Shown piece after piece: positions 13,443-29,158 of a stretch of 35,350 bases of DNA. The position numbers and the translations under genes are program-made. Source of the DNA: Blastocatellia bacterium (GTDB taxonomy: Bacteria > Acidobacteriota > Blastocatellia > RBC074); NCBI GenBank assembly GCA_031359775.1, contig JANMAL010000157.1:1-35350 (forward strand), given 5' to 3'. The notes under the pieces were generated by a model. It did no database searches, was not told the DNA's origin, and worked only from the letters and a program-made list of their open reading frames with translations. Within the stretch, counting starts at the first letter, position 1, and each line of letters starts with the position of its first letter.

Positions 13443-13593
13443 GCATGTTTTTACGGGGTTCCCCCCGTTCTTGTCCGCAAACATTGTGCCTGACAATAGC
13501 TTCTCTTTGGGAGCTTCTGTGACCGTGGATGTTATGGCAATCTGTGTCGCGACAAGTATCCAATCATTTCAAACCAAACTGGAGATGCTTTTT

Positions 13594-16500
13594 ATGCGTA
13601 TGAAACTGTTCTTCCTTTTTGCGCTGCTCGCTGTGCTTAGCACCGGAACGGGAATAGCGCAAACCACCAGCGGCTCGATTGCCGGTAATGTGGTTGACGC
13701 GCAACAGGCCGCAGTGGCCAATGCGACAGTCACGATCACAGATGAGGCGAGAGGATTTACTCAAACCGTGAATGCGGACAGCAACGGACGCTTTGTCTTC
13801 CCGGCCTTATCCCCAAGCACCTATAAATTAGCCATTGAGGCCAAAGGCTTCAAGAAATCAGAACGCACCAGCATTTTACTGGTGGCGAATGACAAGCTGA
13901 CGCTTGGCGATGTAACGCTGGAAGTCGGCGGCGCGAATGAAACCGTGACAATTACGGCGGAAGCCACGCTCGTCCAAGCCGAAAGCGCCGAACGCTCCTA
14001 CGGTATTCAGGGCAAAGCTGTAGACAACATTGCGGTTAACGGACGTTCCTTCGTGGCGCTTGCTTCGATGGCTCCCGGCCTCATCACAAACACCAATAAC
14101 GGCGTAGCTGGTGACATCACTAACATTAGCGCCAATGGCCTCCGCACAAGCGCCAACAATCTCCAGATTGACGGTGTGTCAACAGTGGATACGGGCAACA
14201 ACGGTCAGATGGTTGCCGTTACCCTCGACGCGATTGCCGAGTTCAAGGTATTGACCTCGAACTATCAGGCCGAATACGGTCGCTCAGCGGGTGCGCAGAT
14301 CAGCGCCGTGACGCGTAGTGGAACCAAAGATTTTCACGGTACTTTCTACGCCTTCCGCCGTCATGACGGCATGAATGCGAATACCTGGATCAACAATCAC
14401 ACGCCCAGTCGCGATGCGGCAAATAACCTTCGCCCCTTCACGCCGAAACCGAAGCTCGATCAGCGCGACATCGGCTACACCATCGGTGGGCCGGTCTGGA
14501 TTCCGAAGCTCTTTAACGAAAACAAGGACAAGGCCTTCTTTTTCTTCAGTCAGGAGCATCAGAAGCGCCTCATTCCCCCCGCCGGTCCAACGCGCGTGAC
14601 CGTGCCGACGGCGCTGGAGCGCACGGGCGATTTCTCAAAGAGTGTGGACAGTTCGAACAATCCGTTCCCCTATATTCGCGACTACACGACGAATTTGCCT
14701 TGCAGCGCCTCCGACACCAGCGGTTGCTTCAAAGACGGTGGCGTGCTCGGCAAGATTCCGGCAAGCCGCCTCTATGGCCTCGGCCTCAACATCCTGAAGA
14801 TATACCCACAGCCGAATACCACGGGTACGGGCTTCAACTACATTACAGAAGCGCCGACAAGCCAGCCGCAGCGGCAAGACCTTTATCGCGGCGACTACAA
14901 TATCAACAATGCCTGGCATGCGTCGGGCAAGTACCTCTATTACAAGAACAGCCCGATCCAGCCTTACGGCTCGTTCGTGCTTGGCACCAACCTGCCGGAC
15001 TATGCGACCATCTTCCCGAACAATCGCTATCAGGTGACGGGATCGGTGACGGGATCGCTCTCGCCGACGATGATTCTTGAAGCGACCTTTGGCCAGAGCC
15101 ATAACTTCATTGACATCCTGCCGAACAACCCGAAATTCAACAAAACGGATCTCGGCCTGACCGGCATTCCGGTGCTCTACCCCGGCGCGATTCAGCTTAA
15201 CCTGCCGCCGCAGTTCAGCTTCGGTGGACGCATCGCAAACGGCCCGAATGTCGGGTCGAACAACGCGCCGTTCCACAATTTCAACACGACGCGCGACTGG
15301 TCGGTAAGTCTTTCGAAGATCGTCCGTCAGCATAACTTCAAGGTCGGTGGGTTCTGGCAAAACAGCTTCAAGCCACAAAGCAGCTTCGCCAATAACAACG
15401 GCGTTTACAACTTCAGCAACGACACCAACAATCCGCTTGATTCCGGCTTTGGCTTCGCCAACGCGGCACTGGGCATTTACAACACCTTCACGCAGGCGTC
15501 GGGCTACTACACGGGTAAGTACCGCTACAACAACGTCGAGTGGTTCGCGCAGGACAACTGGAAGGTCACGAGCCGCCTGACGCTCGACTACGGCATCCGA
15601 TTCTATTGGATTCAGCCGCAGTATGACGAAGACTTGCAGACGTCCAACTTCCTGCCGGAACGCTACAACGCATCGAATGCTTCAATTCTTTATCGCCCGG
15701 TTTGTCTGAACAACGCAGCTTCGTGCAGCGGTACGAACCGCCGCGCAGTTGACCCTCGTCTGCTGCAAACCTCGGGCTTCACTGCAAGTACAACAAACAC
15801 AATTGATGGCGCCTACATTGGGCGGCTCGTGCCAAGCGTAGGTTCCATCACGAACGGCGTGGTGCAAGCCGGTGCTGGCATTGAGCCGGGCCTCTACCGC
15901 AATCGCGGTATTCACTTCGCTCCACGCTTTGGATTTGCCTATGACGTTTCAGGCAAGCAGTCGCTGGTTATCCGCGGCGGCGGCGGCATGTTCTATGACC
16001 GTCCGCAGGGCAATACCGTGTTTGACCTTGTACAGAATCCGCCAGTGACCGTCCAACCGACGCTCTTCTACGGTCGTGTGCAAGACGTGGGCACAGGCCT
16101 TGTGCTACTCGCACCCCCTAACCTGGTCGCGATTGATCGTGTCGGTAAGATTCCGACAACTTACGCCTTCAACCTCGGCGTGCAGTACAAACTGCCATTC
16201 GAGTCGGTGCTGGACGTCTCCTATGTCGGCACGGTTGGCTCGCACCTATTGCAACGACGCAGTCTGAATGCACCTAACTATGGAGCTGCGTATCTATCAC
16301 AAAATCAAGACCCGACCTCGACCGCAAATGCGGCAATTGCGGGTAACCGCGCTTTGCCGTTAGACTTCCTGCGTCCGTATTCGGGCTTTGGTCAGATTCA
16401 GTACATTGAGCCAGCCTCCAGCTCGAACTATCACTCCCTGCAAACCTCGCTTAACCGCCGCTTCTCGAAAGGGCTGCTGCTGGGTGCGACCTACACTTGG

Positions 16501-17220
16501 AGCAAGGCGTTGGGTACGCAATCCGCTGACCTGCCGGGCATTACCGGGTTCGGCGCTCCGAATAACCTTGACCAGCGGCGGGCCAATTATGGCATTCAGG
16601 ACTTTGACCGTCGGCACAACTTCAACCTCAACTGGGTTTATGAAATTCCCAAGTTGACGCAGAATCGCGCCCTCGGCTATGCCCTGAATGACTGGCAGTT
16701 GTCAGGCATCTACCGCTATTTGAGCGGTCAGCCTTACAGCGTTGGCTTCTCGATCCCTGGCATTTCAGCCTACACGATCACCGGGACGCAGAACGTCGAA
16801 GGCGGACGTATCGTCATCCTGAAAAATCCGGGCAGCGGCAGCAGCAGCGACCCCTACCGTCAGTTTGATGTGTCCGCGTTCACGATTCCGAACACGGGGA
16901 GTACCAGTTATGAGTCAGGGCGCAATTATCTGAACCGCGCGCCGGTCAATAGCTGGGATCTCTCACTGTCCAAGCGTTTCAAATTCTTGGAAACAGCGGA
17001 AGTAGAACTGCGCTTTGACGCTTTCAATGCGCTCAATCATACCCAGTTCGACGCCGTAAATACGACGCTCAACGTGGTTGGCTTTGAAACGTCCACCGGG
17101 AAGATCAATTCGAACCCGGCAAACCTTGCGTCGGAAACGGGCAATCTTACTGGCTTCGGAGCGGTTACTTCGGTACGCCCGCCACGTAACCTCCAACTCT
17201 CTGCGCGCTTCCGGTTTTAA
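13594..17220 (+). CDS. TonB-dependent outer-membrane receptor with N-terminal carboxypeptidase-regulatory-like domain
   Basis: I prefer the ATG at 13594 because GGAG lies 9 nt upstream and a signal peptide follows (MRMKLFFLFALLAVLSTGTGIAQ). The CarboxypepD_reg-like segment is GSIAGNVVDAQQAAVANATVTITDE…NGRFVFPALSPSTYKLAIEAKGFKK. A plug-like region follows (…ISANGLRTSANNLQIDGVS…), then a long beta-barrel ending in …RNLQLSARFRF (terminal aromatic). Confidence 0.9.
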   Translation: MRMKLFFLFALLAVLSTGTGIAQTTSGSIAGNVVDAQQAAVANATVTITDEARGFTQTVNADSNGRFVFPALSPSTYKLAIEAKGFKKSERTSILLVANDKLTLGDVTLEVGGANETVTITAEATLVQAESAERSYGIQGKAVDNIAVNGRSFVALASMAPGLITNTNNGVAGDITNISANGLRTSANNLQIDGVSTVDTGNNGQMVAVTLDAIAEFKVLTSNYQAEYGRSAGAQISAVTRSGTKDFHGTFYAFRRHDGMNANTWINNHTPSRDAANNLRPFTPKPKLDQRDIGYTIGGPVWIPKLFNENKDKAFFFFSQEHQKRLIPPAGPTRVTVPTALERTGDFSKSVDSSNNPFPYIRDYTTNLPCSASDTSGCFKDGGVLGKIPASRLYGLGLNILKIYPQPNTTGTGFNYITEAPTSQPQRQDLYRGDYNINNAWHASGKYLYYKNSPIQPYGSFVLGTNLPDYATIFPNNRYQVTGSVTGSLSPTMILEATFGQSHNFIDILPNNPKFNKTDLGLTGIPVLYPGAIQLNLPPQFSFGGRIANGPNVGSNNAPFHNFNTTRDWSVSLSKIVRQHNFKVGGFWQNSFKPQSSFANNNGVYNFSNDTNNPLDSGFGFANAALGIYNTFTQASGYYTGKYRYNNVEWFAQDNWKVTSRLTLDYGIRFYWIQPQYDEDLQTSNFLPERYNASNASILYRPVCLNNAASCSGTNRRAVDPRLLQTSGFTASTTNTIDGAYIGRLVPSVGSITNGVVQAGAGIEPGLYRNRGIHFAPRFGFAYDVSGKQSLVIRGGGGMFYDRPQGNTVFDLVQNPPVTVQPTLFYGRVQDVGTGLVLLAPPNLVAIDRVGKIPTTYAFNLGVQYKLPFESVLDVSYVGTVGSHLLQRRSLNAPNYGAAYLSQNQDPTSTANAAIAGNRALPLDFLRPYSGFGQIQYIEPASSSNYHSLQTSLNRRFSKGLLLGATYTWSKALGTQSADLPGITGFGAPNNLDQRRANYGIQDFDRRHNFNLNWVYEIPKLTQNRALGYALNDWQLSGIYRYLSGQPYSVGFSIPGISAYTITGTQNVEGGRIVILKNPGSGSSSDPYRQFDVSAFTIPNTGSTSYESGRNYLNRAPVNSWDLSLSKRFKFLETAEVELRFDAFNALNHTQFDAVNTTLNVVGFETSTGKINSNPANLASETGNLTGFGAVTSVRPPRNLQLSARFRF

Positions 17221-24334: not shown

Positions 24335-25279
24335 ATGAAAAATCTACTTACCATAACGTTGTTATGCGCTGCCTTTGTGTTGCCTGCTCAGGCTGCTGCG
24401 CCCATTCGCGTGATGTTATTGGATGGCGAGAGCGGAGGCTCGTATCACAAATGGCAGCTTGTCACGCCGGTACTGAAAAAACAGCTTGAGGAAACCGGCC
24501 TGTTTCAAGTGGACGTCGTGACCGCGCCGCCTGCGAATGGCGATTTCAGTGGCTTCAAACCTCAGTTCAGCAAGTATCAGGTCATCGTCATGAACTATGA
24601 CGCGCCGGATGAACGCTGGTCGGCGGAATTGAAATCCTCCTTTGAGCAATATGTCAAAAACGGCGGCGGACTGGTTACAGTGCATGCGGCGGACAATGCG
24701 TTTGGCAAGTGGAAGGAATTCAACGAAATGATCGGCATCGGCGGCTGGCGCGGGCGCAATGAAAATTCCGGCCCGTATTGGTTTATGAAAGAGGGCAAGT
24801 TAATGCCTGACACTTCGCCCGGCAACGCGGGCAGCCACGGCGCGCGCCAGCCCTATCAAATGACGGTGCAGGAGTCGAATCACCCGATTACCAAAGGTCT
24901 GCCGAAAGTCTGGATGCATCAGGGCGATGAATTGTATGCGCGCTTGCGCGGCCCCGGCAAAAATATGACTGTCCTTGCTACGGCGTATGCCGATCCCGAA
25001 AACAAAGGGACAGGCCGCGATGAGCCAATGTTGATGACGTTGAGTTACGGTAAGGGCAGAGTCTTTCACACTGCGCTCGGCCACGACGTTGTTGCGCTCA
25101 GTTGCGTCGGCTTTGCCGCAACGTTGCAGCGCGGCACCGAATGGGCGGCAACGGGCAAGGTGACGCAAAAAGTTCCGATGAATTTCCCGACCGCAAATTC
25201 AGTGAGTTATCGTGCGGATATTGCCGCAATGGACCCGAATTACAAGCGCGGCTTGAACGGGTTGGATGCTGCAAGGTAA
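24335..25279 (+). CDS. Exported ThuA-like (trehalose-utilisation protein A family) domain protein
   Basis: The 314-aa ORF has a signal peptide. Segments characteristic of ThuA domains are IRVMLLDGESGG…HKW, YQVIVMNYD…W, YVKNGGGLVTVHAADNAF..W and GRVFHTALGHD. Confidence 0.8.
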   Translation: MKNLLTITLLCAAFVLPAQAAAPIRVMLLDGESGGSYHKWQLVTPVLKKQLEETGLFQVDVVTAPPANGDFSGFKPQFSKYQVIVMNYDAPDERWSAELKSSFEQYVKNGGGLVTVHAADNAFGKWKEFNEMIGIGGWRGRNENSGPYWFMKEGKLMPDTSPGNAGSHGARQPYQMTVQESNHPITKGLPKVWMHQGDELYARLRGPGKNMTVLATAYADPENKGTGRDEPMLMTLSYGKGRVFHTALGHDVVALSCVGFAATLQRGTEWAATGKVTQKVPMNFPTANSVSYRADIAAMDPNYKRGLNGLDAAR

Positions 25280-25535: not shown

Positions 25536-26375
25536 ATGTCTTATCAAACCAAACTTCGTAGTTTTGTGGTGCTGGCGATGGTCGCACTGTTATTGAGTCT
25601 GTCTGTGCAGCAGCCGAGTGCGCAGGAACCGGCGGGCGGCGGTGGGCGGCGCGGCGGCAATCTGCGCGAGTTTCTCGGTCTTGGCCCGGCGCCCGATGCG
25701 GAAGCCGCGAAAAAGGGCGAGCCGCTCTATAACCAATCCTGCGTGGGCTGTCACGGCAAAGAGGGGCGCGGTGCTCAGGCTCCCAGCCTGATTCGCTCTG
25801 CCTTGGTTTTGCATGATGAGAAAGGCGAGAAGCTGGCTCCCATTGTCAAAGAAGGGCGCGGAACCATGCCGGGCTTTCCGAACTTATCGAAGGACGACGT
25901 GTACAACCTTTCGCAATACCTTCATTTGCAAGTGGAACTGACCGCGAATCGCGGCACCTATGGAGCCACCTACGCGGCGCAGCGCAATCAGGCCACCGGC
26001 AATGCCAAAAAAGGTGAAGAGTTTTTTCAGAGCAATTGCACAAGCTGTCATGCCGCGACGGGGGACCTTGCCAAGATTGGCGCGAAGTTCCCACAGATTG
26101 CCGCGCTGAAGAATCGCTTTCTCTGGCCTGCAACGCCCGGCCCCGCCAAAGCAACTGTGACGACGGCGGCGGGCAAAACCATCGCCGGAACCGTCAAGAC
26201 CAACAACGATTTTGAAATTTCGCTGCTGGATGCCGACGGCAAGTATCACTACTGGCCGCGCCCGCAAGTGAAAGTTGAGATCGAAGACAAGCTGACCGGG
26301 CATCGCGCTTTGTTGCCGAAATATTCGGACGCTGACATCAATAATCTCGCAGCCTATCTGGTGACACTGAAATGA
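25536..26375 (+). CDS. Exported dihaem c-type cytochrome
   Basis: The 279-aa ORF has a signal peptide and two haem motifs, CVGCHGKEGRG and CTSCHAATGD. The first domain has the distal-Met context GTMPGF. The stop overlaps the PQQ dehydrogenase start (ATGA, 26372-26375). Confidence 0.85.
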   Translation: MSYQTKLRSFVVLAMVALLLSLSVQQPSAQEPAGGGGRRGGNLREFLGLGPAPDAEAAKKGEPLYNQSCVGCHGKEGRGAQAPSLIRSALVLHDEKGEKLAPIVKEGRGTMPGFPNLSKDDVYNLSQYLHLQVELTANRGTYGATYAAQRNQATGNAKKGEEFFQSNCTSCHAATGDLAKIGAKFPQIAALKNRFLWPATPGPAKATVTTAAGKTIAGTVKTNNDFEISLLDADGKYHYWPRPQVKVEIEDKLTGHRALLPKYSDADINNLAAYLVTLK

Positions 26376-28000
26376 AACGAATCCAACTTTTACTTGCACT
26401 TGTATTGCTTACCAGTTCGCTTTGCGCGCAAGGACTCGATCCCAAAGCGCTCACGCTCTTCAAGCAGCCTGCCGATTCCTGGCCGACGTACAACGGCGAT
26501 TATTCGGGGCGGCGCTACAGCGAATTGAAGCAAATTAACAAGGACAACCTTGACCTGCTCAAGATCGAATGGATGTATCGCATTCGCGGCATCGGGCCAC
26601 AGCGCGGCGTCGGAGATCCGGTCATCAAATCCACACCACTGCTCGTGAATGGCATTCTGTACTTCACGATTCCCGATCACATTTTTGCCATCAATGCGCG
26701 CACCGGCGAACAGCTTTGGCAATACGATTTTGAAGACAAGGGCGGGCATCTGGTCGGGCAGCGCGGCGTTGGGATGTATGGCGACTGGCTCTACTTTGAA
26801 AGCCCCGACGGCTGGTTCATTTCGCTCAACGCCAAAGACGGCAAGGAGCGCTGGCGCAAAAAGATTGCGGACGAGAAGCAGCAATACTTCACGACAATGG
26901 CTCCGCTGATTGTCAAAAATCACATCATCATTGGCGTGGGCGGCGATGCGATGGACGTACGCGGTTATCTGGAATCGCGCGATCCCAAAACCGGCGAATT
27001 GCAATGGCGCTGGTACACGACGCCCGAAAAAATGGGTGACCCCGGTTCTGAAACGTGGCCGAATCTGGAGGCGATGCATCACGGCGGCGGCATGACGTGG
27101 ATGCCCGGCACCTATGATCCCGATTTGAATTTGATTTATTGGGGGACAGGCAACGCGAACCCTGTGTTTGCAGGCCAAAGCCGTAAGGGCGCGAATTTAT
27201 GGACGGCCTGCATTGTGGCGCTGAATCCTGATACCGGAAAATTGGCCTGGTATTTTCAGCCTTCGCCGCACGACACCCACGATTGGGACAACGTCGAAAC
27301 GCCTGTCCTCTTTGACGCCGTCATCAATGGGCAGCCGCGTAAATTGTTGGGGCAAGCTGCGCGCGCCGGATGGTTCTTCGTACTGGATCGCACGAACGGC
27401 AAGAACCTGGTTTCCAAACCCTTCACCGGCACGGGCAATTGGGCTTTAGGCGTGGATACCAAAGGCCAGCCGATCCCGAACCCCGCAAAAGAACCAACCG
27501 TAGACGGCTCAATGATTGATATGCCCGCGATGGGCGCGACCAATTGGCCGCCGCCCAGTTACAGCCCACAGACCGAATTGTTCTACTTCAACGGCACACA
27601 AGGTTACGGGTTAGCATATCTGTATGACACGTCCGACAAACCGCAAGGTTACGGCGGCGGCAGCGGCGGCAACTTCGATGCAAGTTCGGCGTTATTTGCG
27701 ATGGACATTCGGACAGGCGCAGTGAAGTGGAAGCACGAACATCGCGGCGGTGGCCCCGGCGGCGGCAGCATGAGCGGCGGCATTTTGACCACCGCAGGCC
27801 GCTTATTATTCACGGGCGATTCCGGCGAACTGGTCGCGTTTGATCCCGCTGGCGGCAAACCGCTCTGGCATCAACGCCTGACCAGCAGCGTCAGCAACGG
27901 GCCTTCGACCTGGGAGTTGGACGGCAAGCAATATCTGATCGTCGGCGCAGGCGATACGCTCTACGCGCTGACTGTCGCAGGCAAGAAAATTACAGAATGA
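26372..28000 (+). CDS. Exported PQQ-dependent dehydrogenase (quinoprotein alcohol/sugar dehydrogenase superfamily, divergent)
   Basis: The 542-aa ORF has a signal peptide and the N-terminal hallmark WPTYNGDYSGRRYSEL.QIN. Eight-blade W-motif repeats include …INARTGEQLWQYD…, …LNAKDGKERWRK…, …DPKTGELQWRW…, …NPDTGKLAWYF… and …DIRTGAVKWKHE…. Other segments are GTGNANP and HDWDNVE (D-W-D at 27281-27289). Confidence 0.9.
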   Translation: MKRIQLLLALVLLTSSLCAQGLDPKALTLFKQPADSWPTYNGDYSGRRYSELKQINKDNLDLLKIEWMYRIRGIGPQRGVGDPVIKSTPLLVNGILYFTIPDHIFAINARTGEQLWQYDFEDKGGHLVGQRGVGMYGDWLYFESPDGWFISLNAKDGKERWRKKIADEKQQYFTTMAPLIVKNHIIIGVGGDAMDVRGYLESRDPKTGELQWRWYTTPEKMGDPGSETWPNLEAMHHGGGMTWMPGTYDPDLNLIYWGTGNANPVFAGQSRKGANLWTACIVALNPDTGKLAWYFQPSPHDTHDWDNVETPVLFDAVINGQPRKLLGQAARAGWFFVLDRTNGKNLVSKPFTGTGNWALGVDTKGQPIPNPAKEPTVDGSMIDMPAMGATNWPPPSYSPQTELFYFNGTQGYGLAYLYDTSDKPQGYGGGSGGNFDASSALFAMDIRTGAVKWKHEHRGGGPGGGSMSGGILTTAGRLLFTGDSGELVAFDPAGGKPLWHQRLTSSVSNGPSTWELDGKQYLIVGAGDTLYALTVAGKKITE

Positions 28001-28072
28001 GCATTGACCGCCGAGTAAAAACTGGTGGCTTTGCTGAAGCTGGAACGTCAATATTTTTGGTTAGGAGAATCA

Positions 28073-29158
28073 ATGAAGGAACTCACGCGCAGAGATTTTG
28101 TGAAGAATGCTTCGGCGCTACTGGCGACAGGAACGATGGGCCATTCGCTGTTGGCTCACGCACCCGCCGCGCCCATGTCAAAAATGGGCATCGCTTCGAC
28201 TTCGTTTATGGGCGCACAAATCCCCGGCAGCCCCGCACAACCGGGAGCCGCGCAGCCTCCGATGCGTGCGCAGGGGCGCGATGCATATGAGTTTTTAGAA
28301 AAATGTCATGCGCTGGGAGCAGGCGGAATTCAAACCTCGATCAATGGCGACCTGAAAAAGTTGCGCGCGCGGGCCGATGAATTGGGGATGTATCTGGAAG
28401 GCATGGTTTCGATTCCGCGTAACGGTGATATGGCGGCGCTGGAAAAAGGTTTGGCCGATTGCAAAGCGGCGGGCATCACGGTTGTCCGCTCGGCAATGCT
28501 CGGTGGACGACGCTATGAAACGTTTGCGACGCTGGCGGATTGGAAAAAATGGGTGGATCAAAGCCACGCCGCCTTAACGGCAGCCATGCCGATCATCGAA
28601 AAACACAAGGTCGTCGTCGCGCTCGAAAATCACAAAGACTGGACGCTGGAAGATTTTCTGCGGTTGCTTAGAACTTATCAGAGCGAATATCTGCAAGTCT
28701 GTCTGGATTTCGGCAATAACATTTCCATGCTGGATGACCCGTACGAAGTGATCGAAGGGCTTGCACAGTACGCGAAATCCACGCACATCAAAGACATGGG
28801 CGTACAACCTTACGCGGACGGCTTTTTATTATCCGAAGTCCCGCTCGGCACCGGGCTGCTTGATCTGCCCCGCATTGTAGCGACGATCAAAAAGGCGAAC
28901 CCGAATACAAAATTCTCCCTCGAAATGATTACGCGTGATCCGTTAAAAGTGCCGTGCCTGACGAAAAAATATTGGGAAGTGTTCCCCGACCGCAATGGCA
29001 GATATTTGGCGCAAACCGTCAAGCTGGTGCACGAAAAATCCAGCCGCAATCCATTGCCCGCGATTGCTCAACTGAACGTCGCAGAACGCCTCAAGTTTGA
29101 AGAAGACAACATCAAAGCTTGTATGCGCTATGTGGATGAGAAGCAGTTGCTGGCCTAA
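28073..29158 (+). CDS. TAT-exported xylose-isomerase-like TIM-barrel protein (sugar phosphate isomerase/epimerase family)
   Basis: The ATG at 28073 has AGGAG 6-10 nt upstream. The twin-arginine N-terminus is MKELTRRDFVKNASALLATG. Segments VVVALENHKDW, CLDFGN and STHIKD are typical of AP_endonuc_2/xylose-isomerase-like metal-site strands. Confidence 0.85.
   Translation: MKELTRRDFVKNASALLATGTMGHSLLAHAPAAPMSKMGIASTSFMGAQIPGSPAQPGAAQPPMRAQGRDAYEFLEKCHALGAGGIQTSINGDLKKLRARADELGMYLEGMVSIPRNGDMAALEKGLADCKAAGITVVRSAMLGGRRYETFATLADWKKWVDQSHAALTAAMPIIEKHKVVVALENHKDWTLEDFLRLLRTYQSEYLQVCLDFGNNISMLDDPYEVIEGLAQYAKSTHIKDMGVQPYADGFLLSEVPLGTGLLDLPRIVATIKKANPNTKFSLEMITRDPLKVPCLTKKYWEVFPDRNGRYLAQTVKLVHEKSSRNPLPAIAQLNVAERLKFEEDNIKACMRYVDEKQLLA

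Follow-up and report, generated by a model that had tools for sequence, protein, structure and literature searches.

Three groups of described dehydrogenases that use pyrroloquinoline quinone (PQQ) stand closest to the protein considered here, which is encoded by a gene at positions 26372 to 28000 of a 35,350-nucleotide stretch of Blastocatellia bacterium DNA (contig JANMAL010000157.1 of assembly GCA_031359775.1, hereafter the window). The XoxF enzymes (4MAE, 6DAM, 6OC5, 7O6Z) retain a metal-ligand glutamate and an adjacent Cys-Cys pair, and their partner is a monohaem cytochrome of the cL type. PedH from Pseudomonas putida KT2440 (6ZCV/6ZCW), a lanthanide-dependent alcohol dehydrogenase (ADH), likewise has the Cys-Cys ring and a glutamate, Glu199. 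The type II quinohaemoprotein ADHs (1KV9, 1KB0, 1YIQ) combine the PQQ propeller with a single C-terminally fused haem domain, and have a Ca-type D-x-T motif together with Cys-Cys and Glu. In XoxF1, the lanthanide is coordinated by Glu192, Asn276, Asp318, and Asp320, and lanthanide coordination in XoxF1 and ExaF depends on the Asp two residues after the catalytic Asp (+2), the place of an Ala, Ser, or Thr in Ca enzymes (10.1101/2020.02.25.964783). The disulfide ring has been reported as necessary for efficient electron transfer to the cytochrome in canonical enzymes (Mennenga et al. 2009, as cited in PMC8546591).

The window protein shares with PedH the eight-bladed fold, the D-x-D pair, the Asn ligand, and the PQQ-contacting Arg and Trp. 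PedH is its best match in both sequence (6ZCV, E 3e-76 with phmmer against the Protein Data Bank, PDB) and fold, with a template modelling (TM) score of 0.77, but the two are only ~31% identical and belong to separate clades, and no dihaem cytochrome c of the type found in the window adjoins PedH. With XoxF, the protein has the D-x-D, the Asn ligand, the Trp and Arg residues, and the fold in common, whereas XoxF belongs with MxaF to another clade. The type II quinohaemoprotein ADHs give the highest query-normalised TM scores (0.78–0.79) and resemble the window system in having a PQQ propeller with its own c-type haem; unlike in these enzymes, however, the dihaem cytochrome is encoded upstream, or forms an N-terminal fusion in relatives. 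Among described systems, the protein might be expected to resemble most closely, in how it works, a PQQ alcohol dehydrogenase of the lanthanide type that is connected to a cytochrome of its own. We propose that a periplasmic quinoprotein dehydrogenase of the family TIGR04528 and the overlapping gene for a dihaem cytochrome c constitute a self-contained two-gene oxidation module working on scavenged PQQ, which we consider moderately probable.

Family membership, fold and phylogenetic position

The protein and its export signal are located as follows.

26372..28000, forward strand: quinoprotein-like eight-bladed propeller of 542 residues, TIGR04528 (NCBIfam, Pfam PQQ, PDB match, AlphaFold2/Foldseek)
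26372..26428, forward strand: Sec-type signal peptide, residues 1–19, MKRIQLLLALVLLTSSLCA, which holds C18 (from the translation; cleavage site judged by eye)

The NCBIfam hidden Markov model (HMM) TIGR04528, "acido-empty-quinoprotein group A", matched the protein with 789.3 bits (E 1.4e-237) over model positions 2–492 of 493, against a curated cut-off of 650 bits, and searching the whole genome with the model gave the same result. The score for TIGR03075, the PQQ-dependent dehydrogenases of the methanol/ethanol family, was 411.9 bits and thereby under the cut-off of 480 bits. Measured against the type I enzymes of TIGR03075, the protein has the eight-bladed fold, the catalytic Asp, the ligand Asn, and the pocket Trp and Arg residues, but misses three features, namely the HMM cut-off, the Cys-Cys ring, and the Glu ligand. 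With TIGR04528, it shares the family-wide HDWD motif, the missing Cys-Cys pair, a G-D-x-x-D loop, and the acidobacterial origin, and no sequence feature sets it apart from the other members. The gene is a new member of a catalogued, uncharacterised family of PQQ-type dehydrogenases of soil acidobacteria, and the interest lies in the family rather than in this gene.

A word-indexed search of 5.8 billion proteins recovered thousands of relatives, the best 120 of which are 72–90% identical to the window protein. Many of these bear the TIGR04528 name and come from Blastocatellia, Bryobacteraceae, and other Acidobacteriota metagenome-assembled genomes (MAGs), according to the NCBI and JGI annotation. 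Overall, the proteins so named in Blastocatellia, Bryobacteraceae, and Terriglobia MAGs at 72–93% identity number in the hundreds. HDWD is present in 121/121 close homologues and CC in 0/121, with the window protein counted in. At least 596 TIGR04528-type loci were found by a scan of species-representative genomes, some of which have several copies. The best 80 of these loci are Acidobacteriota almost throughout: the closest is in a Blastocatellia MAG (93% identity), further near relatives are in Bryobacteraceae, Terriglobia, and Vicinamibacterales MAGs, and the one cultured carrier among the 80 is Paludibaculum fermentans (55% identity). When 151 genomes of the phylum were sampled, nine had a TIGR04528 gene over the cut-off. 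A few loci (L047, L076, L077, L079, L113) lie in assemblies labelled Solirubrobacteraceae, Caulobacter sp., Nevskia soli, Betaproteobacteria, and Heliobacteriaceae; each of these is a MAG or a "genome mining" bin, so that mis-binning and horizontal transfer are equally likely.

We modelled the structure with AlphaFold2 on a 48-sequence family alignment and obtained a predicted TM score (pTM) of 0.81 and a mean pLDDT (predicted local distance difference test) of 73.5. Foldseek aligned this model to 30 PQQ dehydrogenase chains in the PDB, including PedH, quinohaemoprotein ADHs, XoxF, and MxaF, with TM scores of 0.74–0.79. For the phylogeny, a midpoint-rooted FastTree was calculated from 108 sequences: the window protein, 14 family genes from eight other genomes of the phylum, five paralogues from its own genome, nine solved enzymes, and 79 representatives drawn from 84 full-length ones that resulted from an exhaustive search with 50% clustering. 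PedH was the sole ExaF-type reference, and ExaA was not among the references. The window protein falls into a clade of 21 sequences (Shimodaira–Hasegawa-like support 1.0, stem 0.42) that excludes PedH, XoxF1, XoxF2, XoxF5, MxaF, and the quinohaemoprotein ADHs, while the nine solved enzymes group together in another clade with a support of 0.93. An earlier note, made from the sequence of the window alone, had placed the protein outside the characterised XoxF and ExaF groups, which agrees with this tree as far as PedH stands for the ExaF type. Its description as a divergent protein is not supported in the sense of a one-off: the protein is a typical TIGR04528 member, well over the family cut-off and with relatives of the same name.

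Active-site residues

The correspondence of residues was derived from three alignments: phmmer against the PDB, MAFFT with nine solved enzymes, and hhalign between profiles of 81 family and 25 canonical sequences (probability 100%, E 3e-138). The nine reference sequences for MAFFT were rebuilt from HMMER alignments, and their lengths agreed. Conservation was counted in the 81 family sequences, which span 52–93% identity. The sites are listed below.

27281..27289, forward strand: D304-W305-D306, the catalytic Asp and the +2 Asp, aligned in phmmer, MAFFT, and hhalign; D304 and D306 each 81/81
26738..26767, forward strand: loop K123–G132 (KGGHLVGQRG) in place of the canonical Cys-Cys loop, four residues shorter (hhalign)
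26945..26956, forward strand: D192-A193-M194-D195 in place of the canonical G-E-x-G metal-ligand loop (phmmer, MAFFT, hhalign)
27098..27100, forward strand: W243, equivalent of the Trp in the GGG(T)xW block; Trp in all nine references, 81/81
27152..27154, forward strand: N261 in GTGN, equivalent of the metal-ligand Asn (phmmer, MAFFT), 80/81
27362..27364, forward strand: R331, equivalent of the active-site Arg or Lys in the (D)RNG block (MAFFT), 80/81
27542..27544, forward strand: N391 in GATNW, equivalent of the Asn or Asp in the G-x-x-N/D block (MAFFT), 81/81

D304 and D306 fall on D323 and D325 of PedH and on the D-Y-D of XoxF in all three alignments, and D301 is also kept in all 81 sequences. 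The residues R131, W243, N261, D304, R331, and N391 match the corresponding residues of the nine solved enzymes in the MAFFT alignment. We take them to be equivalent to residues known from methanol dehydrogenase, namely the Arg in contact with PQQ, the stacking Trp, the Asn that ligates Ca or Ln, the catalytic base, and the second Arg, with W243 presumably at the place of the Trp that stacks on PQQ. R131, the equivalent of the PQQ-binding Arg preceding Gly, lies within the K123–G132 loop and is invariant (81/81).

Two loops depart from the canonical pattern. The first is the one that would have carried the disulfide ring. The reference Cys-Cys column corresponds to G125-H126 in phmmer, and the canonical PCCD segment meets a four-residue gap in hhalign, so that the disulfide loop appears to have been deleted rather than substituted; there is no Cys by either alignment. 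Cysteine occurs just twice in the whole 542-residue open reading frame, as C18 of the signal peptide (TSSLCAQGL) and as C280 (LWTACIVAL). A His is found at position 126 or 127 (GGHL or GGIH; H126-L127 at 26747–26752 in the window) in 76 of the 81 family sequences, and the His of the shortened loop may take over a role above the cofactor.

The second is the metal-ligand loop. A193, within GGDAMDVRG, occupies the column of the ligand Glu (E199 in PedH) in the three alignments. Position 193 varies across the family (Asp in 28 sequences, Ala in 25, Ser in 23, His in 4), whereas D192 and D195 are each kept in 80/81, giving the family signature G-D-x-x-D where canonical enzymes have G-G-E-x-G. In XoxF1 of strain AP8, an Asp stands directly before the ligand Glu, which is the position of D192, and backbone amides of this loop bind the 7-carboxylate of PQQ (PMC8546591); this comparison places D192 at the cofactor–metal site. 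D195, two residues past the Glu column, should point in the same direction as the Glu. Judging from their conservation, D192 and/or D195 probably replace Glu as the metal ligand.

Most of what the earlier note had read by eye in these regions is corroborated. Asp-Trp-Asp is indeed encoded at 27281–27289, three independent alignments put it at the catalytic and +2 positions, and the adjacent Cys-Cys pair is absent. The note was also right that the protein has exactly two cysteines, one in the signal peptide and one in LWTACIV, with the small correction that the second is residue 280. The proposed replacement of the ligand Glu in GGDAMDVRG needs qualification: the Glu column is occupied by A193, but the Glu is not simply lost, as D192-x-x-D195 fills the same loop.

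A dihaem cytochrome c encoded with the quinoprotein

The gene immediately upstream of the quinoprotein gene encodes a cytochrome, and the two genes overlap.

25536..26375, forward strand: secreted dihaem cytochrome c of 279 residues with a C-terminal small beta domain (Pfam Cytochrome_CBB3, Cytochrom_C)
25740–25754 and 26037–26051, forward strand: haem motifs of the cytochrome c, CVGCH and CTSCH (sequence)
26372..26375, forward strand: ATGA overlap of the cytochrome stop TGA with the quinoprotein start ATG, translational coupling (sequence)

This arrangement is conserved. A cytochrome c homologue lies immediately upstream on the same strand in 14/14 loci from the eight other genomes and in 78/80 loci from the genome scan, together 92/94, and clustering found a cytochrome c upstream in 80/81 loci. 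No other conserved neighbour of the module was detected in the loci compared. Moreover, P0127, which belongs to the same clade as the window protein, is a natural fusion of cytochrome and propeller, and its N-terminal 276 residues align with the window cytochrome at 34% identity (E 2e-41). Three paralogues from the same genome (L002–L004) also have a homologous cytochrome module as their N-terminal domain. The comparative evidence is strong that the propeller would function as a redox enzyme passing electrons to the upstream cytochrome c. If so, the TIGR04528 family must transfer electrons without the disulfide ring.

The partner cytochrome has a peculiarity of its own. At residues 254–260, TGHRALL (26295–26315 in the window), it has Leu where the fused paralogues have the Met of an "MP" motif (SLMPKDY, SIMPANY), and the His three residues ahead of the Leu-Leu pair is kept in at least 90% of 74 partner cytochromes. 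The exchange of Met for Leu, together with the conserved His, suggests that the second haem may be His/His-ligated. In some loci (L102; L029 and L031), two cytochrome–quinoprotein pairs, or a second quinoprotein paralogue, occur within a few kb, which indicates a probable tandem duplication of the module in some genomes.

Two further genes flank the module in the window.

24335..25279, forward strand: exported ThuA-like protein (Pfam ThuA)
28025..29158, forward strand: xylose-isomerase-like TIM-barrel protein (Pfam AP_endonuc_2), with the N-terminus TRRDFVK, twin-arginine-like by eye

We considered the ThuA and TIM-barrel genes as parts of a conserved unit and rejected this possibility, as they accompany a minority of loci. 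A ThuA gene at 63–69% identity adjoins the module in 2/14 other loci, which belong to a different subclade, with a weak match in a third, and in 2/80 loci with 3-kb flanks. The TIM-barrel neighbour was found in 0/14 loci of the first set, but in 9/80 and 10/81 loci of the larger sets, about one in eight. The two neighbours could hint, weakly, at a sugar or polyol substrate. Large TonB-receptor-like outer-membrane proteins (CarboxypepD_reg + OMP_b-brl_4) are encoded within a few kb of the module in 5/15 loci (L023, L025, L028, L029, L036), and the window has such a gene at 13471–17220, 9 kb upstream of the module. This proximity may be due to chance because such genes are very common in the phylum.

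The proposed oxidation module, its metal and its cofactor

According to our proposal, the propeller and the cytochrome would both be exported, and the propeller would bind PQQ scavenged by the cell, a source we assume because the genome lacks pqqB, pqqC, and pqqE. The metal would be held by Asn261, Asp304, and Asp306, and probably by Asp192 and/or Asp195 instead of Glu. Asp304 would act as the catalytic base when an alcohol-type substrate, perhaps a sugar or a polyol, is oxidised, and the electrons of PQQH2 might pass directly to the partner cytochrome without a Cys-Cys ring and then to the respiratory chain.

Several points weigh against this proposal. The name that the curators gave to the family implies doubt over PQQ in these proteins, and a full-text literature search on TIGR04528 and the family name returned no paper and no characterised member. 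All solved enzymes have a bidentate metal-binding Glu, which is absent here. The AlphaFold2 model has a pLDDT below 50 at residues 193–195, 237–240, 262–277, and 301–308; with active-site loops of such low confidence, it lends no geometric support to the suggested roles at the metal site. A search of the genome for a PqqU-like importer gave at best 68 bits, a generic match to the TonB-receptor plug domain only. Finally, among the nearest full-length representatives, 74 of 84 have D-x-D, and most computationally annotated glucose-dehydrogenase reference sequences carry it as well (PMC11996626).

The last point bears on the alternative that survives best, namely that the module is the same PQQ dehydrogenase–cytochrome pair with Ca2+ or a different divalent ion as its metal, D-x-D being an ancestral trait rather than a lanthanide marker. 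Besides its frequency among the nearest representatives, D-x-D has been found in 14/17 PQQ-dehydrogenase families (PMC11996626), and a motif so nearly universal among relatives is a weak discriminator. The lanthanide ligand set of Glu, Asn, Asp, and Asp (10.1101/2020.02.25.964783) is incomplete without the Glu, and no lanthanide-uptake genes were identified within the window. On the other hand, the +2 Asp goes with lanthanide dependence in every tested case (10.1101/2020.02.25.964783), and the solved references obey the same pattern of +2 Asp versus Ala/Ser/Thr in the MAFFT alignment. In addition, D192 and D195 provide two extra invariant carboxylates that suit a 3+ ion, and we predict that the carboxylate-rich set of D-x-D and D-x-x-D fits a trivalent lanthanide better than Ca2+. 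Surveys predict lanthanide dependence for most enzymes with D-x-D (PMC11996626; bioRxiv 10.64898/2026.07.10.737718). We regard a divalent metal as possible but the less likely explanation of the module as a whole, and lanthanide dependence of the window protein as having about an even chance. The suggestion of a rare-earth-dependent quinoprotein in the earlier note is thus only partly upheld: the lanthanide-type +2 Asp is in place, but since D-x-D and the loss of Cys-Cys are family-wide and common in relatives, sequence does not decide which metal is used.

The same 84 representatives (P0122–P0271) illustrate how the two loops vary. Cys-Cys is present in only 39/84, and the combinations with the residue at the metal-ligand column are Cys-Cys with Glu in 31, no Cys-Cys with Asp in 26, no Cys-Cys with Glu in 10, and Cys-Cys with Asp in 6, counts that are descriptive only as the sequences are related. 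The loss of Cys-Cys co-varies with the exchange of Glu for Asp.

A second, improbable alternative is that the protein is truly an "empty" quinoprotein, as the family name hints, which would no longer bind PQQ and would work with another redox cofactor or with the cytochrome partner alone. The Cys-Cys ring and the ligand Glu are both gone, the score remains under the TIGR03075 cut-off, and the genome has neither pqqB, pqqC, and pqqE nor a recognisable PqqU. For this genome, a 6.38-Mb MAG of 1138 contigs with 98.6% completeness and 6.9% contamination, the searches gave no match for pqqC and best scores of 55 bits for pqqE (cut-off 381) and 25 bits for pqqB (cut-off 245); as a control, the pqqC search recovered the gene in 9/151 genomes of the phylum. 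However, the same genome encodes four other proteins that exceed the TIGR03075 cut-off, one of which is a fully canonical PQQ enzyme, L001 (397 bits versus PedH), with Cys-Cys, Glu, Asn, and D-x-D all present and no haem domain, so the missing biosynthesis is not specific to the window protein. We accordingly rejected the missing pqq genes as a sign of a cofactor-less protein. PQQ must be available to an organism with such an enzyme, and scavenging, which is documented for many Gram-negative bacteria (PMC12124388), is the simplest reading; the gene content clearly points to the use of PQQ not made by the organism itself. If "empty" is read as a host without PQQ synthesis, it applies to the genome of the window, but among the sampled genomes bearing TIGR04528, 4/9 have pqqC and 5/9 do not, so that the term does not describe the family at large. 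Above all, the Arg, Trp, Asn, Arg, and Asn that contact PQQ are, like the catalytic Asp, near-invariant (80–81/81) across the family, and a loss of the cofactor is hard to reconcile with pocket residues kept so strictly.

The genome has at least five further PQQ-ADH paralogues: L001 (contig C386), L002 (C464), L003 (C673), L004 (C247), and L007 (C666). L002–L004, whose N-terminal cytochrome c domain is dihaem, have no Cys-Cys and keep the Glu, one paralogue has an N-terminal monohaem domain, and all five have D-W-D.

It is very improbable that the protein is a non-catalytic beta-propeller of quinoprotein descent, a scaffold or binding protein like BamB, because the weak sequence and fold matches to BamB are partial and reach TM scores of only 0.47–0.50, far below those of the dehydrogenases, the catalytic and cofactor residues are invariant, and both the obligate pairing with a cytochrome c and the natural fusion of the two point to redox chemistry.

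The gene in the window itself adds nothing past the family annotation and the recent D-x-D surveys, and what the proposed oxidation module might mean concerns the family. Tentatively, TIGR04528 could represent a distinct and abundant class of lanthanide/PQQ enzymes in soil, with Asp-x-x-Asp in place of Glu, no disulfide, direct transfer to an obligate dihaem cytochrome whose second haem is maybe His/His-ligated, a supply of scavenged PQQ, and sugars or polyols rather than methanol or ethanol as substrates. Acidobacteriota belong to the most abundant bacteria of the soil, and the TIGR04528 family is common in them. If the binding of PQQ and a lanthanide proves true, the family would extend rare-earth enzymology by the first metal site without the canonical Glu and by an electron path lacking the Cys-Cys ring that passage of electrons to cytochrome c is considered to require, and a large share of soil bacteria would be tied to the environmental supply of PQQ and rare earths.

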